NCBI GenBank assembly: GCA_029856045.1
Contig: JAHQWG010000028.1
Span: 256,001-320,000, forward strand
DNA from: Promethearchaeia archaeon
GTDB lineage: Archaea; Asgardarchaeota; Lokiarchaeia; Sigyniarchaeales; SOKP01
DNA length: 64,000 bases
Direction of reading: 5' to 3'
A program made the translations under genes and the position numbers. Positions 7,967-64,000 of this stretch are shown one piece after another (position 1 is the stretch's first letter; every line of letters starts with the position of its first letter). The notes beneath the pieces are model-generated. The model made no database searches and was not told the origin of the DNA. It was given only the letters and a program-made list of their open reading frames with translations.

Positions 7967-9229
7967 TTATAATAATGTTTTTGTAAACATTCTAATCTTA
8001 TCCTTCACAGTTTTAATAGAGGCAAAGCGCTTGTCACCGACATCTATATCTATAATTAATAAAGGTATTCCTAATTCATCTCGCAAGGCTTCCCTAAGAA
8101 TTTGGGGTAAAGCTCCGAACTGTTTGCAACCTAAATGAGAAGTAAATATCCCACAATCAGCTTTAAATTCTTTTGTAATATTTATAAATTCTGGAATGAA
8201 ATCATCATAAAAACCAACAGATTGCTTAATCATTGGAAAATTCATTGCTTTTCGTGCCATATCTTTAAACATTTTATCTTCCGAACTTGTATCTACAGGA
8301 TTATATAAATTGTAAGTAAAAACATCTAATAAAACTGACATCCCAATTTCTCTATCCAACCATTCACATAAAGCTAAATCAAAGAATATGGTCATATTAG
8401 GCCAGATTGAACGAATTTGTTCTTCTATGGGACTTTCTTTCTTTTTATATCTTTTTTTTGCTAGATCTAGCACATTTTCATAAAGATCTAATTTCTCTGG
8501 ACGTCCTGCCATAAATACTGCAGCAGCAGCAGATATTGGGTTTATCATACTCTCAAGTGGGCAAGGAACAGCTTTTTTTAATTCATATAATTCTAATTCA
8601 AGTTTTATTGATTGATTTTCAATTTCTAAAGATTTCTTCAGTTTATCGAAATCTGGTTCTTGACCAATTATTTTGCCAATTTCACTTAATCCTATTTTGA
8701 TTTGCTCAGCAAAAAATTCATAACTTTTCTCTTCTTGGATAAAGGGCATGTCTGTAATAACTAAAGGAATATCTTTATATTTAAAGAAAGGGTATGAGGC
8801 ATATGTATTATCGCAGGGAGCAGTTGGAGTGGTTATTACATCAAATTTAAATAGATCATCCAATACCATACCCATTACTCCCTTCTGGGAAGAACATGTA
8901 TGGTAGGGGTGTCCCCAGTTAGTAATTAAGTCATAATATTTTTCTGAACCGTTAGGAAGTAATGCCGCCAATAGATATGATGTTCCTTCAATACAAATAG
9001 GAACACAATCAAAACAATGTAAAAATTCTGCTGGACATGCAAAATGATAACCGATTATTGGCAATCCTTCTTCTGCTTTTTGAATATAGTCAATTAAGCA
9101 TTTTTCTAAATTTTTTAATCCCATTTTTAAAACTTGCATTTCATGTTCTGGAACAATTCTCCATACTAACTCATATGAATTTGAAACAACTTCTAACAAC
9201 ATTTTATAAGGGATAACTTTTTCTTTCAT
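7967..9229 (-). CDS. 2-hydroxyacyl-CoA dehydratase / benzoyl-CoA reductase-type subunit (HGD-D family)
   Basis: TCSSQKG, APCD, HLGCK, IPLLIIDIDVGDKR. Confidence 0.85.
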   Translation of the reverse strand: MKEKVIPYKMLLEVVSNSYELVWRIVPEHEMQVLKMGLKNLEKCLIDYIQKAEEGLPIIGYHFACPAEFLHCFDCVPICIEGTSYLLAALLPNGSEKYYDLITNWGHPYHTCSSQKGVMGMVLDDLFKFDVITTPTAPCDNTYASYPFFKYKDIPLVITDMPFIQEEKSYEFFAEQIKIGLSEIGKIIGQEPDFDKLKKSLEIENQSIKLELELYELKKAVPCPLESMINPISAAAAVFMAGRPEKLDLYENVLDLAKKRYKKKESPIEEQIRSIWPNMTIFFDLALCEWLDREIGMSVLLDVFTYNLYNPVDTSSEDKMFKDMARKAMNFPMIKQSVGFYDDFIPEFINITKEFKADCGIFTSHLGCKQFGALPQILREALRDELGIPLLIIDIDVGDKRFASIKTVKDKIRMFTKTLL

Positions 9230-42597: not shown

Positions 42598-44025
42598 ATG
42601 ATTTTTATGTCAGATTCAGCTAAAAACATAATAAAATTTCTTTGTGATCGGTTTTTTGAATTAGATTATTATCCAACCAGTTTAAGTGCACTATTGGATT
42701 TACCAATAGAGAAGTTGAGGGATTTTACACAAAAAGATATCTCTAAATTTAACAAGATAGATATTAAAATATTACGTGATTTAACCACAATTAGTGAAGA
42801 AGAGTTTTTAGAACTTGCAACGCTAACAAACATGGATTCAAATGTATTAAATAATGCAAAAATTGCCGCTACTTTAATAGCAAATGCATGGACTAAAAGA
42901 AAAGAATATATAAAAAAATCTCAGAGTAAAATCGTTGTAGCAGGTCTTGATTATGCAGGAAAAACATCTCTTATTAATAGATTAATGCATGATCATACTC
43001 CTGGGGATGTGATTAATTTAGAGCCTACAATAGGCGCAAATATCCAAGAATTTGAATCGGATAATTTAAACTTGATAATATGGGATCTTGGAGGGCAAAA
43101 AAGTAATTTAGAGGAATATATCCAAGAACCAGAGAAATTTTTTATCCAGCTAGATGTTTTATTTTTTGTATTTGATGCTCAAGATGATGTTCGCTATGAA
43201 GTTGCTCTTAAATATTTAAATGATCTCTTAGAAATTCTTGAATTTATAAAAGAAATTCCCCATATCTTAATTCTTATAAATAAAGTAGATCCTGACATCG
43301 AAAAAGATCCCGATTTTCAAATCAAACTTGAATATTTATCTGATAAAATTACAAGAATCTTTCTTAAGAAACCAAAAAATGTAAACTATGAAATAATACA
43401 AACAAGTATTTATAATATTTATTCCCATGAGCCTGAAATCGTAAAAACCATAAAAAATGTTTTTTCAAAAGATATTATTGCGAAGAAAGAAAAAAAAGAA
43501 ATGGAAATTGATGAAAAACTTCAGAAAATATTGGATATTAATTTTAAATTAATGGATAAAGTTGTTTCTGAACTCTCTGACATAAAAAGAGTTTTATATA
43601 AATTAGCACCATCAGATCTTAAACAATCAATCTATGCTGTTCCTTTTGATAAAGTTCCCTCTGAATATGTATCAACTCCCAAAAAAATCGCAAAAAAGCC
43701 TATAATTGCAAAAATTGAAAAGGAAAAACCTAAAAAAAAGAAAAAACCTAAAAAACCAGGGGTTCCTACTAAAATTCCTAAACCTATAAAATTATCTCCA
43801 CCGGCATCCAAAATTGAAGAAACAATGGATAAATTAAGTCAAAAATTTGAAGAAAGCGAACAAAGAATGGCATTGGAAAATTTAACACCACCCAAACCTC
43901 CTCCAAAAGCACCTGCAATTCCATCAACAACCCCACATAACATTATTAATCCTCGCAGCCAAATAATGTCAGAGTTAAAAGATATCTTCAAAAAAAAGGG
44001 AATCGTGAAAAAAGAAATTGTCTAA
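42598..44025 (+). CDS. Multidomain Arf-like small GTPase with Lys/Pro-rich C-terminal tail
   Basis: GLDYAGKTS, PTIG, WDLGGQ, NKVD. About 105 aa helical N-domain and a PPKPPPKAP tail. Confidence 0.85.
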   Translation: MIFMSDSAKNIIKFLCDRFFELDYYPTSLSALLDLPIEKLRDFTQKDISKFNKIDIKILRDLTTISEEEFLELATLTNMDSNVLNNAKIAATLIANAWTKRKEYIKKSQSKIVVAGLDYAGKTSLINRLMHDHTPGDVINLEPTIGANIQEFESDNLNLIIWDLGGQKSNLEEYIQEPEKFFIQLDVLFFVFDAQDDVRYEVALKYLNDLLEILEFIKEIPHILILINKVDPDIEKDPDFQIKLEYLSDKITRIFLKKPKNVNYEIIQTSIYNIYSHEPEIVKTIKNVFSKDIIAKKEKKEMEIDEKLQKILDINFKLMDKVVSELSDIKRVLYKLAPSDLKQSIYAVPFDKVPSEYVSTPKKIAKKPIIAKIEKEKPKKKKKPKKPGVPTKIPKPIKLSPPASKIEETMDKLSQKFEESEQRMALENLTPPKPPPKAPAIPSTTPHNIINPRSQIMSELKDIFKKKGIVKKEIV

Positions 44026-46080: not shown

Positions 46081-46632
46081 TTGAAAGATGCCACATTTAA
46101 AATTTGCATTTTTGGAGACGGAGGTGTGGGTAAAACATCTTTGACCAAAAAATATGTTACTGGCTTATTTGATCCTGATTTGAAATTTACAATTGGACTG
46201 GATTTTTATGTGAAAAACCTAGAAGTTAATGAAAAGTTAATATCTTTACAAATCTGGGACTTTGCTGGTGAATCTCGATTTAGATTTCTTTTACCCGACT
46301 ATGTAAAAGGGGCATCTGGAGCAATTTTTATGTACGATATTACTCGATACTCATCCCTAAAAAATATGGATGATTGGTTGCTTGTTTTTAATCAAGGTTT
46401 AATTAAAACTGATAAGCAAATGCCTATTATTATGGTCGGAGGAAAAGCAGATCTCATTCAGAGACGGGCAATTCAGAGTGAAGACGCTATTGAGATCGCG
46501 AAAAAGCAAAAATTTATTGGATTTATTGAATGTTCCTCTAAAACAGGAGAAAATGTAGAAAAAATATTTATTACATTAGCTAATATAATGATGAAAGAAG
46601 CAGGTTTAACCCAAGATAATATTTTGTTATAA
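46081..46632 (+). CDS. Rab-like small GTPase
   Basis: GDGGVGKTS, TIGLDF, LQIWDFAGE, GKAD, ECSSKTG. No C-terminal Cys. Confidence 0.92.
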   Translation: MKDATFKICIFGDGGVGKTSLTKKYVTGLFDPDLKFTIGLDFYVKNLEVNEKLISLQIWDFAGESRFRFLLPDYVKGASGAIFMYDITRYSSLKNMDDWLLVFNQGLIKTDKQMPIIMVGGKADLIQRRAIQSEDAIEIAKKQKFIGFIECSSKTGENVEKIFITLANIMMKEAGLTQDNILL

Positions 46633-46780: not shown

Positions 46781-46990
46781 CTAGAAGTATTTAATAGCGA
46801 GTAAGATATCTTCTTTTGTAATTTTCTTCCTCTTCGAATGTTTTGTTAACTTCAAAGCGGTTTCAGTTATTGATTTACTGGCAACACCCAACCAATCGAT
46901 TAATTCATCAACAGCGTCGCGTGCAACGATTGTAGCACCACTGTTTTTCATTAATCGGCGGATGGGGCTCCATGAAAAGTATTCTGCCAT
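46781..46990 (-). CDS. Archaeal histone (no tail)
   Basis: SPIRRLMK, VARDAV, HSKRKKITKEDI histone fold. Confidence 0.92.
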   Translation of the reverse strand: MAEYFSWSPIRRLMKNSGATIVARDAVDELIDWLGVASKSITETALKLTKHSKRKKITKEDILLAIKYF

Positions 46991-49962: not shown

Positions 49963-50601
49963 TTATTTTATTGAGTTTGTTGCGAGCATCTCATCAAGGG
50001 CTTTAGTTATTTCTTTACATGATTCAAGCATCATTTCTGTGTAATTCACAACTGTTTGCTCAGATAGATTTCCTTGTTTTTTCCCTTCTAAAATTAATTC
50101 ACAAAATCCTTGAATAGTATTAATTCCGCTTCTAATTTGCATAGTAAATGATTCTAATGGCAAGACTTCTTCCTTTTTCATATATATCTCATTTATTTCA
50201 CTAAAAAATTTCTTAAATGATTTTATATCATCTGATAAAATTTGTTTGTTTCCTAATTTTAGGAATTCCATTTCAATTCTTCGGAAATGAATTATTGGAA
50301 TTAGCGGATATGCTACATCCCGAAGAATTATCAGTGAATATAATTGTTTCCCTCCCCGAGCGCTAGGATCTTCAACTTCTATTTTACAGATCTGGGAATA
50401 AAATTGACTATAATCCAAAATGACAAATTTATTTTTAGTATTTAATGCATCTCTCAAAAGATTTTTGACAAATTGCTCTTCCTTAAGTGGAAAAGATGAA
50501 TATAAAGTTCTGGGACCCAAAATTTGATCATATTTTCCAATAATTAAAATAAATTGATATTTATCCAATCCTTCTTTAAAATTTAGGTAATCATCAGACA
50601 T
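49963..50601 (-). CDS. Folliculin-like longin/uDENN domain fused to a His-less HisKA (DHp)-like domain
   Basis: YDQILGPRTL and DPSARGG..YSLII motifs. C-terminal FTMQIRSGINTIQGFCELIL aligns to the H-box helix. Confidence 0.65.
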   Translation of the reverse strand: MSDDYLNFKEGLDKYQFILIIGKYDQILGPRTLYSSFPLKEEQFVKNLLRDALNTKNKFVILDYSQFYSQICKIEVEDPSARGGKQLYSLIILRDVAYPLIPIIHFRRIEMEFLKLGNKQILSDDIKSFKKFFSEINEIYMKKEEVLPLESFTMQIRSGINTIQGFCELILEGKKQGNLSEQTVVNYTEMMLESCKEITKALDEMLATNSIK

Positions 50602-50658
50602 AGCCTTCCTCCATTTTCATATTAGATTTTATTTTTATGCTGATTTCTTTGGTTATTT

Positions 50659-52965
50659 TTAATTAGTCTCACTAATTTTTTGTAATTGTTCTTCAGTTAA
50701 TGTGATTTTAGGAATTGTAAAAAAGAATGTGGTTCCTTTATCTAATTTACTTTCAAACCAAATTTCCCCTCCATGAAGATTTACTAGTCTTTTCGTTAAT
50801 GCTAAACCCAACCCTGTCCCCTGAACCTGTTTTATCTTATCACCTTCTACTCTTCCAAATTCTCTAAAGACTACATCGTAATCCTTCTTTGCAATACCAA
50901 CACCAGTATCTTTAATTTGAAATTCCCAATGATCGATTCTTTGAATACCACGAAGTGAAACATTTCCTTGCTCTGTAAATTTAAATGCATTACTTAAAAT
51001 ATTATATAATATTTGTTTGAAACGAATAGGATCAGCAGTTAAATAATCGTGTTCATCTATACCTTTAACTTTAAATTCCAAATTTTTGTTTGAATATAAT
51101 GGTTTTATTACTGCATTAATTTCTACAATAAATTCATTTAAATCAAATTTCTGCATATTTAATTTTAATTTTCCAGCTTCAATTTTTGAGATATCTAAAA
51201 TTGAATTTATTAAACTGAGTAAATGATCTCCTGCAGAATTAATATCATTTATAAAATCTTGTTGATCTACATTTAAATTACCATATGAACCATCTAATAA
51301 CAACTGTGAAAAACCTAATATGGCATTCAACGGTGTTCTTAATTCATGAGACATTGTAGCCATAAATCTTGATTTAATATCCAAGGAAGCAAGTAATTGA
51401 TCAAATAACATTTCTCGATTCTTTTCAAAATTTTTTCTATCAGTAATATCGGAAAAAAAAGATTGAATAATTATTTGATCTTCAATTCTTAATATGGTTG
51501 ACGTAACTTCTACATACAATAGTTTTCCATACTGTGCTTTTATCAATGCTTCGACTTTATTAGGAATTGATAAATCATAAATACCTTCTTCGTAATGTTT
51601 TTTAACTATATCTATAAATTCTGGGTCAAATAACTCGTATATATTGTGTGTTAATAATTCTTCTCGATTATAGTTGAATAAATTCTCTGTTTCTCTATTA
51701 GCCTTTAAAATTTCACCCTTTTGATTTAATAGAAAAATTCCCAATGGAGCTGTTTCATTAAGCGCATCTATTTCTTGTAATGTTTTCTCTAATTTTTTTA
51801 TTTCTTTCTCAGACTGTTTTTGAGCGGTAATATCTTGTATCATCAATTGTACAATATTTTTCTCCCCCATTTTAAATAAAGAAGATTGTATATTCACCCA
51901 AGCAATGTTCCCATCCTTTTTCTTAATTTGAATTTCAAGAGGCGTTGGAGCATTTCCATCATATATATCTTTATATTTTTCTTTTATATCTGAAAGACTT
52001 GATGAAGGAAGAATAGGTGTTTCATAATATCTTTTATTGATTAACTCTTCCTTTTTATATCCAAATATTTTTTCGGTAGTATTATTGCAATCAATAATCA
52101 CACCTTCCAAATTAAGTAGGATTATGGAATTTGGAGAATTTTCAAATAGATATCTGAATTTTTCTTCTGACTCTTTTTTCTTTTTTTCCGTCTTCTTGCG
52201 TTCCGTAATATCTTCGCAATTAGTTAGGAGTACATTTTTACCACCCAACTCTATTAAGTCTATATTCATTAGAGCTGTATAAATTGTGCCGTCTTTTTTT
52301 TTCAGTTTTACTTCGAAATTATAGACCTTATCAGTTTCATGCAATTTATTAAGCAATTTTTTACGTTCATTTGGATCAACATAAGTAGAAATAAGTCTAT
52401 GAGTGTTTAACTCATCTAAGGTAAAACCTGTTATTTCTTGCATTTTTTTGTTCATAGCAAGAATATTACCCTCAAGGTCAGCAATCCCAATCCCTATTGG
52501 AGAAGAATTAAATAAAAATTGATATTTTTCCTCAGATTTTTGTATCTGGGTAGTTAATTTTTCCATTTTAATCCATGTTCGATTTCTTTCAATAGCATAT
52601 TGGATTGAACGTAATAATAGATTACTATTAATCTCATTTTTAATCAAGTAATCTTGAGTTCCTGCTTTAACCGCTTCTACACCTATTTGAAAACCATCAT
52701 TTACAGTTAGAACAATAACAGGAATATTTTGAACCTTTTCACAAGTCTTAAATACAGTATTAAGTCCAAAACTATCTGGAAGGTTTATATCTAAGAGAAT
52801 TACGTCATAATTTCTATTATCAATATGGTTAAATCCTTTCTTAAGGGTATCAGCCCAAACCAAATTAAATTTTAAATTTTTAATCTTTTTTAGCATTTCT
52901 TCTATTAATCGAACATCACCAGGATTATCTTCGATTAACAGAATATTAATTAAATTATCTAACAT
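50659..52965 (-). CDS. Hybrid histidine kinase REC-PASx3-HisKA-HATPase
   Basis: EDNPGD/LLD receiver, three PAS domains ending DIT, SHELRTPL, NAFKFT, DTGVG, GTGLGL. Confidence 0.93.
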   Translation of the reverse strand: MLDNLINILLIEDNPGDVRLIEEMLKKIKNLKFNLVWADTLKKGFNHIDNRNYDVILLDINLPDSFGLNTVFKTCEKVQNIPVIVLTVNDGFQIGVEAVKAGTQDYLIKNEINSNLLLRSIQYAIERNRTWIKMEKLTTQIQKSEEKYQFLFNSSPIGIGIADLEGNILAMNKKMQEITGFTLDELNTHRLISTYVDPNERKKLLNKLHETDKVYNFEVKLKKKDGTIYTALMNIDLIELGGKNVLLTNCEDITERKKTEKKKKESEEKFRYLFENSPNSIILLNLEGVIIDCNNTTEKIFGYKKEELINKRYYETPILPSSSLSDIKEKYKDIYDGNAPTPLEIQIKKKDGNIAWVNIQSSLFKMGEKNIVQLMIQDITAQKQSEKEIKKLEKTLQEIDALNETAPLGIFLLNQKGEILKANRETENLFNYNREELLTHNIYELFDPEFIDIVKKHYEEGIYDLSIPNKVEALIKAQYGKLLYVEVTSTILRIEDQIIIQSFFSDITDRKNFEKNREMLFDQLLASLDIKSRFMATMSHELRTPLNAILGFSQLLLDGSYGNLNVDQQDFINDINSAGDHLLSLINSILDISKIEAGKLKLNMQKFDLNEFIVEINAVIKPLYSNKNLEFKVKGIDEHDYLTADPIRFKQILYNILSNAFKFTEQGNVSLRGIQRIDHWEFQIKDTGVGIAKKDYDVVFREFGRVEGDKIKQVQGTGLGLALTKRLVNLHGGEIWFESKLDKGTTFFFTIPKITLTEEQLQKISETN

Positions 52966-53157: not shown

Positions 53158-53616
53158 TTAAGTTATTTCATGCCCATCAGGTGGTAATTTGACAATCGAA
53201 AACCAGAAATCTCCAATAGATTTCACCACTTTTATAAATTGTACCATACCTATAGGTTTGGAGATATAACAGTTCGCATGTAAATTGTATGTTTTTATAA
53301 TATCCTCCTGAGATTTAGAAGTTGTTAAAACTACGACCGGAATTCGCCTTAAATCTTTATCTTGCTTAATTTCAGCTAAAACCTCACGTCCGTCTTTCTT
53401 AGGTAGATTTAAATCAAGTAAAATTACATCAGGTCGTGGTGAATTATTAAATTTTCCTTTTTTATATAAAAAATCTATTGCTTCTATACCATCCAATGCT
53501 ACGTGTAATTTATTGGCAATTTTACATTCTTTAAGAGCTTCTTTTGTCAAACGCACATCTCCTGGATTATCTTCAATTAGCAAAATTTCTATCATTTTAT
53601 ATTTTTGTTTTGTCAA
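53158..53616 (-). CDS. Rcp1-like single-domain response regulator
   Basis: EDNPGD, LLDLNLPKKDG, LTTS, ANCYISKP, DFW. Confidence 0.92.
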   Translation of the reverse strand: MTKQKYKMIEILLIEDNPGDVRLTKEALKECKIANKLHVALDGIEAIDFLYKKGKFNNSPRPDVILLDLNLPKKDGREVLAEIKQDKDLRRIPVVVLTTSKSQEDIIKTYNLHANCYISKPIGMVQFIKVVKSIGDFWFSIVKLPPDGHEIT

Positions 53617-53663: not shown

Positions 53664-56345
53664 TTATTTTTTTATTGGAATAGTAAAATGAAATGTTGAA
53701 CCCTTTCCAACTTCTGATTCAACCCAGATTTTTCCATTATGTCTTTCTATAATTCTTTTACATAGGGCTAAACCTATTCCTGTGCCAGGATATTCAGATT
53801 TTGAATGTAAACGTTGAAAAATAATAAAAATACGATCAAAATATTCTGGATCTATGCCGATCCCGTTATCTTTTACTGAAAATTGCCAGTTTTTTTTAAT
53901 CTTTTTCGCCGAAATATGTATACGCACGGGATCTTCACTGCGGAATTTTATTGCATTACCAATCAAATTTTGAAACACTTGCAGAAGTTGTGTTTTATCT
54001 ACCATTACATTTGGTAAATAATCATAGGTTATCTTTACATCTATTTCTCTTATAATCTTATGTAGATTTAAAAGAACATCTTTTAAAACCTCTTCACAGT
54101 TAGTAAATTCAAAAGGATTACCACGAGTCTGAATTCTTGAATATTCTAATAAATTTTCTATAAGAACTTTCATATTATTTGCACCATCTACAGCATATTT
54201 AATGAACTCATTTGCATCCTCATCTAATTTATCTTTATAACGCTTTGCTAGGAGTTGGGTATAACTTGCCACCATTCTTAATGGTTCTTGTAAGTCATGA
54301 GATGCAATATAAGCAAATTGTTGTAATTCTTCATTGGAACACTTTAAATCGGCCATAATTTGTTGTAATTCTTTTTCTTTCTTCCTGCGCTCGGCAATAT
54401 CTCGGAAGATAAGGATAACACCTATAATATTACCTTTATCATTCTTTATTGGTGCGCCACTATCAGCGATCGGTATTTCCTTTCCATTTTTCGCTATTAA
54501 GATAGTATTATTCGCCAGACCGACAATAAATCCTTCTCGAAGGACTCTAGATACAGGATTTTCAACAGATTTACGCGTTTCCTCTTTAATGATATTAAAA
54601 ATATATTGTATGGGTTTTTCTATAGCTTCTTCTAACTTCCAGCCAGTCAAAGACTCGGCAATTGGATTTAAAAATGATACCTTACTTTTTATGTCAGTAG
54701 TAATTACTGCATCCCCAATACTTCTGAGTGTTGTGGAAAGCCATTCTTCACTCTCTTTTAATCTTTCTTCGGATTTTTGGAGCTTTTGAGTGCGCTTCTC
54801 TACCAATTCTTCAAGATGATCACGATATTTTCTCAATTCCTTCTCCGTTTTTTTACGCTCGGTAATGTCTATAAAAGAAGCCATCCTACCGATATCGTTC
54901 CCATCCTGATCCGTCACAACGGAAGTGGATACTTCAACAGGAAACTCCGTGCCGTCATTGCGTTGCGCAATAAATTCTTCAGTCTCGCCTTTTACCTTGT
55001 CAATAATCGTTTGCACATCAGAAAACCTCTGTACTACCTCTCTGGGAATTAATTCTCTAGCAGATTTACCGAGTAAACCTTCCTTGCTTTCATATTCAAA
55101 CATTCTCGCAAAAACTGGATTGACATACGTTATTTCTCCTTTAAGGTTCGTTATGATAACGCCGCTCACTGAAGAATCTATCGCATCGTAAGCAACGCTT
55201 AACTCTCGCTCCAACTTCTTGCGCTCGGTAATATCTTTTATAATAAATGCAATATCTATTGTCTTACCATCAGGTCCCTTTACAATAAAAGTGGTTAGTA
55301 AAATGGGAATTCTCGAACCGTCTTTTCTTATATATTCTTTTTCATACGTTTCAGGATTTCCTGTTTTTATGATCCTTTCTATTATTTTGTATTCATATTC
55401 TTCGTACTCCTCCGGAGTTATATCTTGAAATTTTTTTCTGGCTAATAATTCCTCTTTTGAATAACCCGTTAGCTCGGAAAAAGCATCATTAACATCCAAT
55501 AGCATTCCATCCAAATTAGCATAGGCTATGGCATCTTTTGAGGAGTTGAATATCCCATTGAAACGTTCTTGAACCTTTCCATTCTCCTCCTCTGCTTTCT
55601 TTCGCTCCGTAATATCCTGTCCAACTCCTTGAATCCCAATTGCCTTTCCATCAGCATCTTTTACTGCAGTAACATTCCATGAGATCAAAATCCTTTCTTT
55701 TTTACCCTTTTTCCAATAATATTGCTCAAAACCTTCTTGACTCCTATTTGGATCTATTATAACCTTCTGCCTTACGGGTTCAGCCTTTTCTAATTCATTT
55801 TTCTCAAGCATTGATCTTATATCATTACCAATCATCTCCCCTTCTTCATATCCTAATATTTTACAGGCGTATGGATTCATTAAAGTTACTCTCCACTCAT
55901 CATCGTATGCCAAAACGATGGCATTGGCATTATTTACTAGCATTTTGTAGCTATACAATTCTGCCTTTATCTTCTTACTCTCAGTAATATCTCTGAAAAC
56001 TTCAATAACTACTGGATTACCATAAAAATCTTCTACGAAAAAAGCGTCAATTCCAAAATATTTTGTTTCTTTGGTTGAAGGAAATGTTGTAATTTTTTCG
56101 AATCTCATCCTACGTTGTTCTATTGTCAAAGAGTTTTCAATAGGACAAGATTCACAAGGTTTTGAGCGCTTAAATAAAGTATTATAGCAGTTTTTTCCAA
56201 CCAAATTCTTTCCGAATTCTTTGAGAGCATTTTCATTTGCAAATAATATCTTATTCTTCTGAGAAATAACCAAAATTGGATCTTTCATATTTGAAAAGAT
56301 TAATCCTAATTCTTCTAGAGATTTTTTTAAATCTTGTGTTGCTAT
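53664..56345 (-). CDS. Multi-PAS (x5) sensor histidine kinase with a Cph1-like transmitter core
   Basis: SHDLQEPLR, NAIKF, DNGIG, FQRLH, GTGIGL. The tracked ATG is 56288. An AGGTGA SD points to ATA at 56345. Confidence 0.9.
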   Translation of the reverse strand: MATQDLKKSLEELGLIFSNMKDPILVISQKNKILFANENALKEFGKNLVGKNCYNTLFKRSKPCESCPIENSLTIEQRRMRFEKITTFPSTKETKYFGIDAFFVEDFYGNPVVIEVFRDITESKKIKAELYSYKMLVNNANAIVLAYDDEWRVTLMNPYACKILGYEEGEMIGNDIRSMLEKNELEKAEPVRQKVIIDPNRSQEGFEQYYWKKGKKERILISWNVTAVKDADGKAIGIQGVGQDITERKKAEEENGKVQERFNGIFNSSKDAIAYANLDGMLLDVNDAFSELTGYSKEELLARKKFQDITPEEYEEYEYKIIERIIKTGNPETYEKEYIRKDGSRIPILLTTFIVKGPDGKTIDIAFIIKDITERKKLERELSVAYDAIDSSVSGVIITNLKGEITYVNPVFARMFEYESKEGLLGKSARELIPREVVQRFSDVQTIIDKVKGETEEFIAQRNDGTEFPVEVSTSVVTDQDGNDIGRMASFIDITERKKTEKELRKYRDHLEELVEKRTQKLQKSEERLKESEEWLSTTLRSIGDAVITTDIKSKVSFLNPIAESLTGWKLEEAIEKPIQYIFNIIKEETRKSVENPVSRVLREGFIVGLANNTILIAKNGKEIPIADSGAPIKNDKGNIIGVILIFRDIAERRKKEKELQQIMADLKCSNEELQQFAYIASHDLQEPLRMVASYTQLLAKRYKDKLDEDANEFIKYAVDGANNMKVLIENLLEYSRIQTRGNPFEFTNCEEVLKDVLLNLHKIIREIDVKITYDYLPNVMVDKTQLLQVFQNLIGNAIKFRSEDPVRIHISAKKIKKNWQFSVKDNGIGIDPEYFDRIFIIFQRLHSKSEYPGTGIGLALCKRIIERHNGKIWVESEVGKGSTFHFTIPIKK

Positions 56346-57622: not shown

Positions 57623-58483
57623 ATGAATAATAAGAAAACTGAAGAGATGGAAAAATATGAAAAAATGACTGGCAAACACGCAATTTGGCGTGGTGTAATA
57701 ACTGAAGGATTTAAAAAATGGCAACGAGGAGAAAAAATTTATGATAGATTTAAGGAGAGAATAGCTCTATATGTAGCTAAAGAAACTAAAGAAGAATGGC
57801 AGAATTTCATAAATAATTCAAAATATACTTCTGTTTCTAAGCTTGTGAGAGATGCAGTAAATAATTTCATTGAAAAAAAATTAAAAGTAATAGATTATAA
57901 GAATTATAGTAAAGATAATCAGCTTAGAGATCTTTCAGATATCTCACATGTTTTAAAAGAAGCATTAACTTCAATAAAAGGTTTCTCACAATTATTAATT
58001 GAAAATTATAAGGAAGAACTCAATGAGGAAATCATTTTAAAAATAAAAGAAATTTTTGATAAAAGCATCTTCCTTGAAAACAAGATTAATGAATCTTTAG
58101 AATATTCTCAAACTAAAAAATCACAATACGACATTTTATTAATTGAAGATGATATTTCAACAATAAAATTATTAACATCATTTTTTGAAAGGAAAGGTTA
58201 TAGTTGTAAAGGTGTCATAAGTGGTTCTAGAGGATTGGATGAATTGAAGAGAAATATTCCAAAAATAATTTTATTAGACATTATTTTACCTGATATTAAT
58301 GGATTTGAAGTTTGCAAAATAATAAAATCTAATAAAGAATATCAAAATATTCCCATCTTTCTATTAACTGCTGTATCAAGTCTAAAAGTTGAGCATCTTA
58401 TTAAAAAAGCAAAAGTAGATGGTTATATCTCAAAACCTTTTGATTTTTCGGATTTTAATATAATATTGGAATACTTACATTAA
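57623..58483 (+). CDS. RHH-DHp(HisKA)-receiver protein
   Basis: ERIALYV..KEEW..SVSKLVRDAV (RHH-like), ISHVLKEALTSIKGF (H-box), IEDD/LLD/LTA/KP receiver. No ATPase domain. Confidence 0.75.
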   Translation: MNNKKTEEMEKYEKMTGKHAIWRGVITEGFKKWQRGEKIYDRFKERIALYVAKETKEEWQNFINNSKYTSVSKLVRDAVNNFIEKKLKVIDYKNYSKDNQLRDLSDISHVLKEALTSIKGFSQLLIENYKEELNEEIILKIKEIFDKSIFLENKINESLEYSQTKKSQYDILLIEDDISTIKLLTSFFERKGYSCKGVISGSRGLDELKRNIPKIILLDIILPDINGFEVCKIIKSNKEYQNIPIFLLTAVSSLKVEHLIKKAKVDGYISKPFDFSDFNIILEYLH

Positions 58484-60742: not shown

Positions 60743-61618
60743 TTGGTGATTTCAATTTTGAATAATGAAAAAAAAAATAGTGAAATGGAACAATATGAAA
60801 AAGAGACAGGAAAATATGCTGTTTGGCGTGGTATCATAACTGAAGGATTTAAAAAGTGGAAAAGAGGAGAAAAGATTTATGATAGAGATAAGGAGAGAAT
60901 ATCACTCTATATATCGGAAGAAACTAAAAAAAAATGGCAAAATTTTATTGAAAGTAGCAAATATTCTTCAATTTCAAAATTGATAAGAGATGCTATGGAT
61001 TTTTTTATTAATGAGAAATTAAGAGGAGGTATTGATGAAAAACTTAAAAAATCAAGACCTTTTAAATCAATTACTGATATTTCCCATGATTTAAAAGAGG
61101 CTTTAACTACCATAAAAGGATTTTCACAGTTATTGCTTAATAACTATAAGGATGATATAAAAGAAGATGTATTATCAAAAATTAAGGAGATTTTTAATAA
61201 AAGTATATTTCTTGAAAATAAAATAAAAGAAGTCTTGGAAAAAGGAGAAAATAGAAAGACACAATATGACCTTTTATTAATTGAAGATGACCCATCGACT
61301 ATAAAATTATTAACCACGTTTTTTGAAAGTAAAGGTTATTCTAGTAGAGGGGTAATTAGTGGTTCTAAGGGAATAGAAGAATTAAAAGTAAATGTTCCAA
61401 AATTAATATTATTAGATATAATATTGCCAGATATAAATGGATATGATGTTTGTAAAATTATAAAATCTGATGAGAATCTTAAATATATTCCAGTTTTTTT
61501 CTTAACGGCAATTCCAAGTTCAGAAGTTGAGAAAAAAATTAAATTTGCTGGTGCAGATGGATATATTTTGAAACCATTTGATTTTAGTGATTTTGAAATT
61601 TTATATACATATCTATAA
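60743..61618 (+). CDS. RHH-DHp(HisKA)-receiver protein (paralog of 57623..58483)
   Basis: ERISLYISEETKKKW..SISKLIRDAM, ISHDLKEALTTIKGF, IEDD/LLD/LTA/KP. Confidence 0.75.
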   Translation: MVISILNNEKKNSEMEQYEKETGKYAVWRGIITEGFKKWKRGEKIYDRDKERISLYISEETKKKWQNFIESSKYSSISKLIRDAMDFFINEKLRGGIDEKLKKSRPFKSITDISHDLKEALTTIKGFSQLLLNNYKDDIKEDVLSKIKEIFNKSIFLENKIKEVLEKGENRKTQYDLLLIEDDPSTIKLLTTFFESKGYSSRGVISGSKGIEELKVNVPKLILLDIILPDINGYDVCKIIKSDENLKYIPVFFLTAIPSSEVEKKIKFAGADGYILKPFDFSDFEILYTYL

Positions 61619-61765: not shown

Positions 61766-63073
61766 ATGGTTATAGGCATAGCATTATTTAGTTGGGATAA
61801 GAAGATGGGTCCGGTTTTAGAGATTAAACATCCTGAAAATCTTGATTTATCACAAAATTTAATTAATAAAATATATATGACTCATGCTTATAGGCAGGAA
61901 AATCAAAATGAAGAGTTAATGGAAATTAATCTGGAGAATAAAATTATACTTAGCTACTGTGATATGTCTAAAGTTGCAAAATTTGGGTATGAAATAATTA
62001 TTCTTATTGTTCATGAGAAGGAGAAAATACATCTTAAAAATTTAAAATCCAAATTATTTGAATTTGCGAGAGAAGTGTTAAATAAACCTAAAATTGAGAG
62101 ACATAAGTATTTTTTTGAAAATCTCGATTTGTTTTTTAAAGAAACATTAAAGAAAAAGATATTATTAGTTGGACGAGCAGCTACAGGAAAATCTAGTATT
62201 AAGCAAGTTATTTTTGAAGGAAAGATGCCACAGGAGTTATTATCTAATCCCCTTGAGCCAACTCGTGGTTTAACACCCTCTGTTTATTCATGGTTAGATC
62301 TGGATTTGGGTATTTTCGATTCAGCTGGTCAAGAACTGGATTATTTATTAGATGATAAAAATGAACAAACCTTAGCATTCGAAAATACTGATATTATAAT
62401 ATATATGTTTGATTACCTAACGTGGGTTGAAAATAACGAAATAATAATAAAAGATATCAGAAAAATTTCAAGAATTATTAAACAAGAGTCTTATAATGCT
62501 AGGATTATATTATTTCTACATAAAATTGACTTAATTAAGGAAGAAAATAGAGAACAAAACATAAAAAATATCCAGCGAGAAATAAAAGAACAATTGAATT
62601 TACAGATTTATTTTACAAGTCTTTATCCAAATTTAATTTATAATACTTATAATGCATTTTATGAGATTTTGAGTAATTTTTCCAAAGAGACAATTTATTT
62701 TAAAGAAATTTTGGATGAAAAAATTAAAGACAGTTCAAAATCTATGTGTTTTATAACTAATCAAAACAGTAGTATAGTTGTTCAGACAATGTCTAATGAT
62801 TTCAATTTTAAATTAATCAACCAAATTCATAGATTAATTGCTCAATTTGACCAATCATTTGAAGACATGTGTATGAATGATAATATCGATTATATGATAC
62901 TTTCAAGTTTGAAAAATTTTAATATTATTATGAAATTTCTTAACCTCTCGAATTATAATCTTAAAAATTTAATTTTAATCTCTGAAATAGCTAGTATCAA
63001 TCAATTAATAGGATTTTGTGAGGAAATTAAAAGTACTTTGAATAGATATTTTTATAAAGATATTCAACTATGA
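61766..63073 (+). CDS. Longin-like + Rag/Gtr-like GTPase + roadblock-like domain protein
   Basis: N-terminal FSWDKKMGP. GRAATGKSSIKQVIF, LEPT, DSAGQ, HKID, FTSL. About 120 aa alpha/beta C-domain. Confidence 0.78.
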   Translation: MVIGIALFSWDKKMGPVLEIKHPENLDLSQNLINKIYMTHAYRQENQNEELMEINLENKIILSYCDMSKVAKFGYEIIILIVHEKEKIHLKNLKSKLFEFAREVLNKPKIERHKYFFENLDLFFKETLKKKILLVGRAATGKSSIKQVIFEGKMPQELLSNPLEPTRGLTPSVYSWLDLDLGIFDSAGQELDYLLDDKNEQTLAFENTDIIIYMFDYLTWVENNEIIIKDIRKISRIIKQESYNARIILFLHKIDLIKEENREQNIKNIQREIKEQLNLQIYFTSLYPNLIYNTYNAFYEILSNFSKETIYFKEILDEKIKDSSKSMCFITNQNSSIVVQTMSNDFNFKLINQIHRLIAQFDQSFEDMCMNDNIDYMILSSLKNFNIIMKFLNLSNYNLKNLILISEIASINQLIGFCEEIKSTLNRYFYKDIQL

Positions 63074-63082
63074 GAATCTAAA

Positions 63083-64000
63083 ATGGGTAAGAAGATAATT
63101 TTCGTTGGACCGCCTGGAGCGGGAAAAACCACCTTAAGAAAAGTTTTTTTTGAGGGAGAATCTTCTTCAAAATTATTAGATTATGCATTAGAGCCTACAC
63201 ATGGTAAAGAATCAGTTATTCTTCAGTTAAGTGAGGATGTTGGAGTGTTTGATCTAGCAGGTCAGGAAAATACAAGGTGGTTTGAAACAGATGATAAAGA
63301 AATTTTCTACGATACAAAAATTCTTATAGTAGTTATTGATATTACAACAGACCATGAAAGAATTATAGAGTTTATTAACAGAGTTATTAAAATTCGAAAT
63401 GAATTAACACCGACTGCATTTATATATATATTAATTCATAAAATTGATTTGGTAGCACAAAAAACAATCAAAGCAATAAAATATAAAATTTCTGATGTTA
63501 TTGGTGAGGAAAAGTCTGTTAAAATTGCATTTACAAGTATTCAGAAAGTATATTTCCCCTCAACATTTTCATTGTTTATGGATATCTTAGATACATGTAT
63601 AAGTGAAAGGGTAACTCCTGAAAGAATTAATTTGAATCTACTTCAAAACACTATTGATTTTTTATATGAATTACAAAAGAGTGTTTTAATTTCGAAAGAT
63701 GATTTACAGATAAGATTAAAAGCTCCTGATGAAATGATTGATTCTATAAGCAAACTATTGAGTAATAAAGGACATATTGATGTTTCAAAAATAAATGATA
63801 GAACAATTTTTAGTTTAACTGATAAAGGTAAAAATTATTTTAAAGAAATTTTAAATAAATTTTCTTTGCAAAAATTGATTAAATTTGAGAAAGAACATTA
63901 TAAGACAGAAGCCGCTTTAGGGCCAAAAGTTCCTCCATATTTAGGTTTTTTGGTGGCTGATAAAGATGGAAAAACAATAATAAATGTAGAAATATTTGAC
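63083..64000 (+). CDS. Rag/Gtr-like GTPase with winged-helix domain (runs off the window end)
   Basis: Hand translation, not in the ORF track: GPPGAGKTTLRKVFF, LEPT, DLAGQ, HKID, FTSI, then ISKDDL...KGHI...FSLTDKG, then YLGFLVADKDGKT. Confidence 0.8.
   Translation, partial: MGKKIIFVGPPGAGKTTLRKVFFEGESSSKLLDYALEPTHGKESVILQLSEDVGVFDLAGQENTRWFETDDKEIFYDTKILIVVIDITTDHERIIEFINRVIKIRNELTPTAFIYILIHKIDLVAQKTIKAIKYKISDVIGEEKSVKIAFTSIQKVYFPSTFSLFMDILDTCISERVTPERINLNLLQNTIDFLYELQKSVLISKDDLQIRLKAPDEMIDSISKLLSNKGHIDVSKINDRTIFSLTDKGKNYFKEILNKFSLQKLIKFEKEHYKTEAALGPKVPPYLGFLVADKDGKTIINVEIFD

Follow-up and report, generated by a model that had tools for sequence, protein, structure and literature searches.

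A longin protein with a candidate arginine finger and a histidine-less DHp-like hairpin, encoded beside Rag-like GTPases and sensor kinases in Lokiarchaeia

The locus

The window, by which we mean the whole stretch of 64,000 nucleotides analysed here, is AT-rich, with a GC content of ~28%. On its reverse strand, at 49963..50601, lies an open reading frame of 212 aa with an ATG start, referred to here as the longin-hairpin gene. The stop of an upstream hybrid histidine kinase gene (50659-52965) is found 57 bp before this start codon, and a GGAGG motif sits within the spacer. Rab-, Rag- and Arf-like GTPase genes, which a preliminary description of this DNA had reported in the window, are indeed present. 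The features used in this work are the following:

49963..50601 (-), whole longin-hairpin gene, coding for 212 aa with an N-terminal helix followed by the longin domain and the His-less DHp-like hairpin
50608..50612 (-), GGAGG, motif resembling a ribosome-binding site, 8 nt ahead of the ATG (read from the sequence)
50173..50559 (-), longin domain, residues 15-143, with the order strand-strand-helix-strand-strand-strand-helices (AF2 model, VIA-align, Foldseek)
50512..50517 (-), GP motif, Gly29-Pro30, on the loop that joins strands 1 and 2
50353..50361 (-), Ala81-Arg82-Gly83, candidate arginine finger, on the loop that joins strands 4 and 5
49975..50163 (-), His-less DHp-like hairpin, residues 147-209, helices 149-176 and 181-209 (AF2, hhalign, VIA-align)
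50140..50142 (-), Met154 (atg codon) at the phospho-acceptor His position; hhalign pairs ESFTMQIR with ATMSHELR
50659..52965 (-), upstream neighbour, REC-3xPAS-HisKA-HATPase hybrid kinase (Pfam)
53158..53616 (-), single-domain receiver (Pfam Response_reg, E 1.4e-18)
53664..56288 (-), PAS-rich histidine kinase (Pfam)
42598..44025 (+), 475-aa Rag/Arf-like GTPase (Pfam Gtr1_RagA 7.3e-22, Arf 1.6e-21)
61766..63073 (+), 435-aa Rag-like GTPase, first of a tandem pair (Pfam Gtr1_RagA 8.1e-25)
63083..64000 (+), 504-aa Rag-like GTPase, second of the tandem pair, extending beyond the window

Other genes of the window deserve a mention. Two paralogues of ~290 aa, at 57623-58483 (+) and 60743-61618 (+), combine HisKA and receiver domains without an ATPase domain; they flank a PAS kinase, their orthologues recur beside the longin-hairpin gene in other genomes, and they may be phosphotransfer intermediates. 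A Rab-like GTPase gene at 46081-46632 (+) (Pfam Ras, 7e-44) adjoins an ORF of 69 aa at 46781-46990 (-), whose product looks histone-fold-like by eye.

A narrow and conserved family

The reading frame is a real single-copy gene, found once in its own 3.3-Mb genome. A word-indexed search returned 297 relatives of its product, all of them annotated as hypothetical, nearly all of 207-240 aa, 59-96% identical to it and nearly all coming from a single order of Lokiarchaeia. When 1.8 billion representatives were searched exhaustively with HMMER, only 26 clusters at 50% identity came up, which indicates a narrow and slow-evolving family. Full-length matches, looked for in 400 sampled genomes of the phylum, were confined to the gene's own order. 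One of the orthologues is found in a genome assembled as a single contig of 4.3 Mb (G143). Within the gene cluster, the longin-hairpin gene shows the highest identity, about 60-65%, in comparison with 35-55% for its neighbours. The idea of a decayed kinase fragment was rejected, since 121 relatives share the same two-domain form of 207-240 aa at about 60-95% identity, and both the His and the ATPase are absent from every one of them.

General resources say little about the protein. Comparison with NCBIfam gave no meaningful match, and FLCN and NPRL2 were absent from the matches of PDB sequence searches that took the protein or the profile of its family as query, among which were noise hits to uL22 (E 1.6) and L-dopachrome isomerase (E 0.022) and a weak match to a DHp domain (7n0e, E 0.26). 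The AF2 model of the protein has a mean pLDDT of 88.8.

Several variant architectures were also observed. Two proteins of 388 and 391 aa (P0131 and P0134) carry a PAS domain upstream, fused to a diverged copy of the longin-hairpin protein, and in variants of this type the linker between the PAS and longin domains reads like a second His-less H-box. In another genome of the same genus (G145), a PAS-fused variant (L055:686-1858, (-)) is divergent to a Rag-like GTPase gene, and a further member of the family, P0145, is membrane-anchored. Among more remote proteins, a 6.0-Mb single-contig genome (G138) encodes a protein of 423 aa (L047:7191-8462, (-)) with a related longin that keeps the GP motif and has VRG replacing ARG; the C-terminal part of this protein has the look of two PAS domains, and BLAST aligns it with a PAS kinase. 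The product of L046:8013-8801 is a longin of 262 aa with a helical tail. Together, these last two architectures indicate that the related longin type has been combined with several sensor modules.

A longin domain with a candidate arginine finger

In the AF2 model, a short N-terminal helix precedes a domain that the preliminary description had taken for a folliculin-like longin, an assignment upheld by both structural searches. Foldseek ranked NPRL2 and FLCN chains at the top (E 6.5e-5 to 1.6e-4), and VIA-align gave Z 12.9 against NPRL2 (rmsd 2.8, 132 aligned residues), Z 11.9 against FLCN (rmsd 2.7, 127 aligned, 16% identity) and Z 11.6 against the solved Lokiarchaeal longin 8yqg. Longins that are not GAPs, such as Fuzzy (Z 10.9) and VAMP7 (Z 10.5), score nearly as high, ~2 Z units under NPRL2, so the fold by itself identifies a longin and the assignment to the GAP class depends on the motifs.

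Those motifs lie in two segments of the protein, GKYDQILGPRTLY (residues 22-34) and IEVEDPSARGGKQLYSLII (residues 74-92). All the strings quoted in the preliminary description from this protein and from the neighbouring kinase are found at the residues to which it had assigned them, and the FLCN strings that it had set beside them occur exactly in the solved folliculin chain 6ulg_L (residues 1-30 and 148-188), where the arginine is R164. The triplet L28-G29-P30 is present in all 121 core-family members; when distant members are included, Gly29 is still invariant and Pro30 near-invariant (at least 90%). The A81-R82-G83 triplet, with the Arg82 codon cgg at 50356-50358, is likewise found in 121 of 121 close relatives.

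As for the correspondence with the human protein, the Pfam profile PF11704 (Folliculin) aligns residues 61-102 to its positions 40-81; for the FLCN fragment 148-188, the aligned positions are 45-85. Residue and profile spans are equal in both alignments, which can thus be read as gap-free, and R82 and R164 both fall on position 61. Moreover, a BLASTP comparison of the FLCN fragment with the longin-hairpin protein aligned ARG to ARG (E 0.002). The Folliculin match itself (E 0.0017, 18.6 bits) is under the curated cut-off of 23.3; a match at E ≤ 0.1 was obtained for 53 of 60 family members, the best of them with an E of 3.8e-5, so that few members, if any, would be above that cut-off. The equation of Arg82 with the FLCN finger stands as far as profile position and the core family are concerned, and does not extend to three distant relatives (P0128, P0130 and P0135), in which the residue is substituted. 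Judged from these alignments and from the model, the N-terminal domain is a longin that belongs with FLCN, NPRL2 and SMCR8 in the 'GAP' class, and it carries a GP motif and an arginine at the FLCN R164 position.

The same residues could serve another purpose. The longin, possibly as a dimer, might be a non-catalytic platform for Rag-like GTPases and bind them in the role of a GEF, effector or scaffold; Arg82 and the GP motif would then serve binding or structure and not provide a catalytic finger. Such a role would be in line with the close structural matches to VAMP7, Fuzzy and TRAPP longins, with the arginine missing in distant members and with the observation that longin/roadblock dimers are mainly GEF platforms (PMC10933270), but it has to face an arginine kept at the FLCN finger position by the entire core family together with the GP motif, a combination described as specific to GAP longins (PMC12290439). 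We consider a platform of this kind unlikely. GAP activity proper, directed to the co-encoded Rag-like GTPases, seems to us somewhat less likely than not, whereas a direct regulatory role of any kind towards these GTPases is probable.

A DHp-like hairpin without histidine

The C-terminal part of the protein had been described as a kinase dimerisation domain without its histidine, with Met154 at the phospho-His position, and profile comparisons and structural alignment both substantiate this description. Residues 152-171, FTMQIRSGINTIQGFCELIL, include Met154, and the segment with which they had been compared, MSHELRTPLNAILGFSQLLL, is present in the upstream kinase (50659-52965). When a profile of the C-terminal domain was compared by hhalign with a profile of 43 DHp domains from neighbouring kinases, a score of 35.0 was reached (probability 90%, E 1.4e-6), whereas the reversed template gave 9.3 and a set of 20 column shuffles stayed between 7.7 and 13.2. 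The alignment pairs an H-box-like IRSGINTIQGF with LRTPLNAILGF of the kinases. At the phospho-His position, the 121 relatives have Leu (86), Met (33) or Ile (2), and never His.

At the structural level, VIA-align superposed residues 142-212 on residues 248-316 of the HK853 DHp domain (Z 8.8, rmsd 2.4, 69 aligned), a Z value that, for a helical hairpin in a predicted model, would by itself be nondiagnostic of a DHp domain. The Pfam HisKA match (E 0.012, 16.1 bits) lies under the cut-off of 26.9, and Pfam found no match to HATPase_c in the protein, whose chain ends at residue 212 just after the hairpin. An alternative assignment of the hairpin to the region that follows the longin in NPRL2 was rejected, as long alignments gave an rmsd of 5.8-7.0. 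From the profile evidence, the C-terminal domain is a homologue of kinase DHp hairpins, incapable of phosphorylation and devoid of an ATPase.

His-less DHp-like sequences also occur as repeats. A metagenomic protein of 556 aa (P0144) has six tandem HisKA-like hairpins behind a Gly/Ala-rich N-terminus, all six with Phe at the His position (MSFKLRT...), and represents a family of His-less DHp repeats.

Conservation is uneven along the protein: helix 1 of the hairpin reaches 77% across the family, the longin 70% and helix 2 only 46%. Such strong conservation of helix 1 is a hint that it offers a surface to a particular partner and does more than zip two chains together. In real kinases, the receiver-docking face is on DHp helix 1. 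It is at this point that a role as a kinase modulator has to be weighed, in which the pseudo-DHp would mix with the DHp of a neighbouring kinase or of a DHp-REC protein, or compete for receivers, and so tune phosphotransfer, while the longin would be an input reading the state of a GTPase and information would run from GTPase to kinase. The contrast between the two helices favours this idea, as does the fact that, in the local set, an HMM of the C-terminal domain matches both the operon's first kinase and the DHp-REC proteins, with E values of 3e-5 to 1e-3; by default, however, a pseudo-DHp would self-dimerise, and the invariant arginine, the GP motif and the longin-GTPase fusions described below are left unexplained. 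We regard such a modulator as quite unlikely. A two-domain regulator of the GTPases, the reading that we prefer, would make use of the same hairpin as a dimerisation device.

Conserved linkage with Rag-like GTPases and kinases

The longin-hairpin locus was taken from 36 genomes, which cover at least 14 genera and 2 families, and the neighbours were classed by Pfam and by BLAST against the proteins of the window. The commonest layout starts with a divergent ~490-aa Rag/Arf-like GTPase gene, the longin-hairpin gene and a gene for a GTPase of ~295 aa, and ends with two PAS kinases followed by tandem Rag-like GTPases of ~440 and ~515 aa, with receivers and DHp-REC proteins close by. The next gene on the same strand encodes the ~295-aa GTPase in 23 of the 36 genomes and a histidine kinase in 11. 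The spacing between the longin-hairpin gene and the GTPase gene was measured in nine loci: it is 12-46 bp in eight of them and 174 bp in the ninth, where the GTPase start is called short (243 aa). Considering that the window's own genome, of 3.3 Mb, has only 17 HATPase_c and 20 Gtr1_RagA matches, an adjacency of this sort would arise by chance around a percent of the time.

In the genus of the window this layout is rearranged, the longin-hairpin gene ending a kinase-receiver-kinase run and facing a radical-SAM gene. The same elements can nevertheless be recognised: the orthologue of the upstream hybrid kinase is linked to the longin-hairpin gene in other genera, that of the 475-aa GTPase is its divergent upstream neighbour in most other genomes, and that of the 435-aa Rag-like GTPase, which according to the alignment has an N-terminal longin with the GP motif and without ARG, closes the operon in other genomes. 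No orthologue of the 295-aa GTPase was found in this genome, where its nearest relative is the 504-aa GTPase, with 34% identity and a score of 194 bits against the Rag295 profile.

Gene content was then compared across 135 genomes of the family, with thresholds of E ≤ 1e-60 for the longin-hairpin gene and E ≤ 1e-40 to the 295-aa profile for the Rag module: both are present in 42 genomes, neither in 84, the gene alone in 4 and the module alone in 5, counts that overstate the case, given that related genomes are not independent. Presence of the gene and of the module is patchy within genera. In one genome (G227), which lacks the downstream GTPase and kinase genes, the orthologue (L054:7053-7618, (-)) is broken: a frameshift splits it between two reading frames, and it stops short of most of the hairpin.

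The longin-hairpin gene is thus co-operonic with a RagA-like GTPase gene, with sensor kinase genes, or with both. A bridge between two-component and GTPase signalling had been proposed from the window alone, and this proposal finds strong support at the genomic level in the operons that the gene shares with RagA-like GTPase and PAS kinase genes. What the linkage says about function is another matter. Together with the fusions, synteny ties the longin to GTPases and gives no direction of catalysis, which suits the non-catalytic platform; the kinase found directly after the gene in 11 of 36 genomes and directly before it in the window, and the PAS-fused variants P0131 and P0134, suit the kinase modulator. 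It might also be argued that the resemblances carry no shared function, the protein being a lineage-specific dimer with a role unrelated to GTPases or phosphorelay and the linkage a matter of shared regulation. The evidence is wholly computational and the Pfam scores are sub-threshold, as such an explanation would have it, but linkage kept across genera with gaps of 12-46 bp, gain and loss of the gene together with the Rag module and the existence of direct longin-GTPase fusions all make it very improbable.

The RagA-like neighbour and longin-GTPase fusions

The ~295-aa GTPase, with reference locus L033:7081-7962 (-), where the longin-hairpin gene is at 7998-8681, and its orthologues, matches Gtr1_RagA in Pfam (1.7e-15), and its model superposes by VIA-align on RagA/Gtr1 with a Z of 21.3, in comparison with about 16-17 for Arf and Rab. 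The catalytic Gln64 is invariant, and the Rag hallmarks HKxD and TSI are present. A roadblock C-terminal domain was expected in this protein and was rejected: the last 100 residues have a secondary-structure order of three helices, two strands and then further helices, which is winged-helix-like instead. To judge from this predicted order, the protein could be a DNA-binding GTPase.

Longins of the same type are also found in direct fusion with GTPases. In the genome of the window, L051:5903-7333 (+) (G000:C3) encodes a protein of 476 aa in which a folliculin-like longin, with GP and ARG motifs and a Pfam Folliculin score of 22.6 bits, is fused to a Gtr1/RagA-like GTPase, and which is by its sequence a candidate GTPase with a built-in GAP. 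Another fusion, of 345 aa (L053:5985-7022, (+), genome G199), joins a related longin, with GP and ARG, to an Arf-like GTPase, and the weak matches seen in many genomes that lack the longin-hairpin gene are ~350-aa longin-Arf-like fusions of this latter kind.

Proposed function

Taken as a whole, the longin-hairpin protein would be a two-domain regulator within a conserved Lokiarchaeal module that combines Rag-like GTPases with PAS histidine kinases and receivers, a reading to which we give an even chance. The longin would bind at least one co-encoded Rag-like GTPase and would most likely speed up GTP hydrolysis via Arg82. The pseudo-DHp would make a dimer of the protein through a four-helix bundle, and this dimer may substitute for the second longin/DENN subunit found in eukaryotic complexes. 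In the genus of the window, the likely targets would be the Rag-like genes located 6-12 kb away.

More speculatively, the conserved helix 1 of the pseudo-DHp might dock a receiver or pair with a kinase DHp, allowing the phosphorelay to gate the GTPase switch. In its fullest form, a phosphorylated receiver or a mixed kinase bundle would switch the Arg82-dependent GAP and turn off the RagA-like GTPase, whose winged-helix-like domain would control transcription; such a complete chain of events seems to us distinctly improbable. Our literature searches did not find an experimental test of an Asgard longin GAP.

Relation to known systems and significance

[quoted passage not shown] Longin platforms for the most part work as GEFs or adaptors rather than as GAPs. 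With FLCN, NPRL2 and SMCR8 the longin-hairpin protein shares the predicted longin fold, the GP motif, the arginine at the profile position of FLCN R164 and an association with Rag-family GTPases that is here genomic. Unlike these proteins of 380-580 aa, it has only 212 aa, its sequence score is under the Pfam cut-off, and it lacks a DENN domain, the C-terminal domain of NPRL2 and a partner longin subunit, the longin being followed by a His-less DHp hairpin.

As observed for the HisKA/DHp domain of HK853, the C-terminal part is a two-helix hairpin with an H-box-like sequence and a structural match, but with Leu, Met or Ile in place of the His, Gly in place of the H-box Pro and no HATPase_c, and its partner in the chain is a longin instead of sensor and catalytic domains. 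Kinase modules that have degenerated in this way, losing the His while retaining the fold, are known in DivL, in plant phytochrome and in the kinase-related domains of subfamily-2 ethylene receptors.

As for the Asgard archaea, Liu et al. (2020, bioRxiv 10.1101/2020.10.19.343400) describe many fusions of NPRL2-like longins with two-component domains and propose that growth control is still two-component-centred in these organisms, with 'eukaryotic' regulators. The GP motif and the Arg finger have been described in Asgard longins of the FLCN/SMCR8 type (Traffic 2025, PMC12290439), where the questions are raised explicitly whether such longins act as GAPs and whether Rag or Arf-related GTPases are their partners. 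The protein described here belongs to the same lineage and longin class and has the same motifs as the longins of these two works, and the inference that two-component signalling feeds a FLCN/GATOR-like switch is the same as that in print. Longin-Rag-like and longin-Arf-like fusions of Lokiarchaeia have been noted as well (PMC10933270; Liu et al.). Longins fused to two-component domains and Asgard longins with GP and Arg are already in print. The related longins of L051 and L053 share GP and ARG with the longin-hairpin protein, whereas in those fusions the longin is in cis and in our case it is separate, carries a pseudo-DHp and is encoded beside the GTPase. For MK-D1, Tran et al. (PMC10933270) state that operons do not generally combine genes for GTPases and longins, a rule to which the longin-hairpin family is an exception. 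New in this work are the next-gene linkage, the co-distribution of the gene with the Rag module and the direct longin-GTPase fusions of the same longin type.

The value of the finding lies in a defined and conserved candidate pair of regulator and GTPase that can be tested directly. The family offers a compact and soluble-looking candidate of 212 aa whose fixed neighbour is a 295-aa RagA-like GTPase that keeps the catalytic Gln. If the proposed function is true, the pairing of Rag GTPases with longin GAPs would predate eukaryotes and would have been driven at first by two-component signalling rather than by TOR. If, in addition, the GAP were gated by phosphorelay, a prokaryotic His-Asp phosphorelay would be wired directly to a Rag switch of the FLCN/GATOR type, a plausible forerunner of eukaryotic nutrient signalling.
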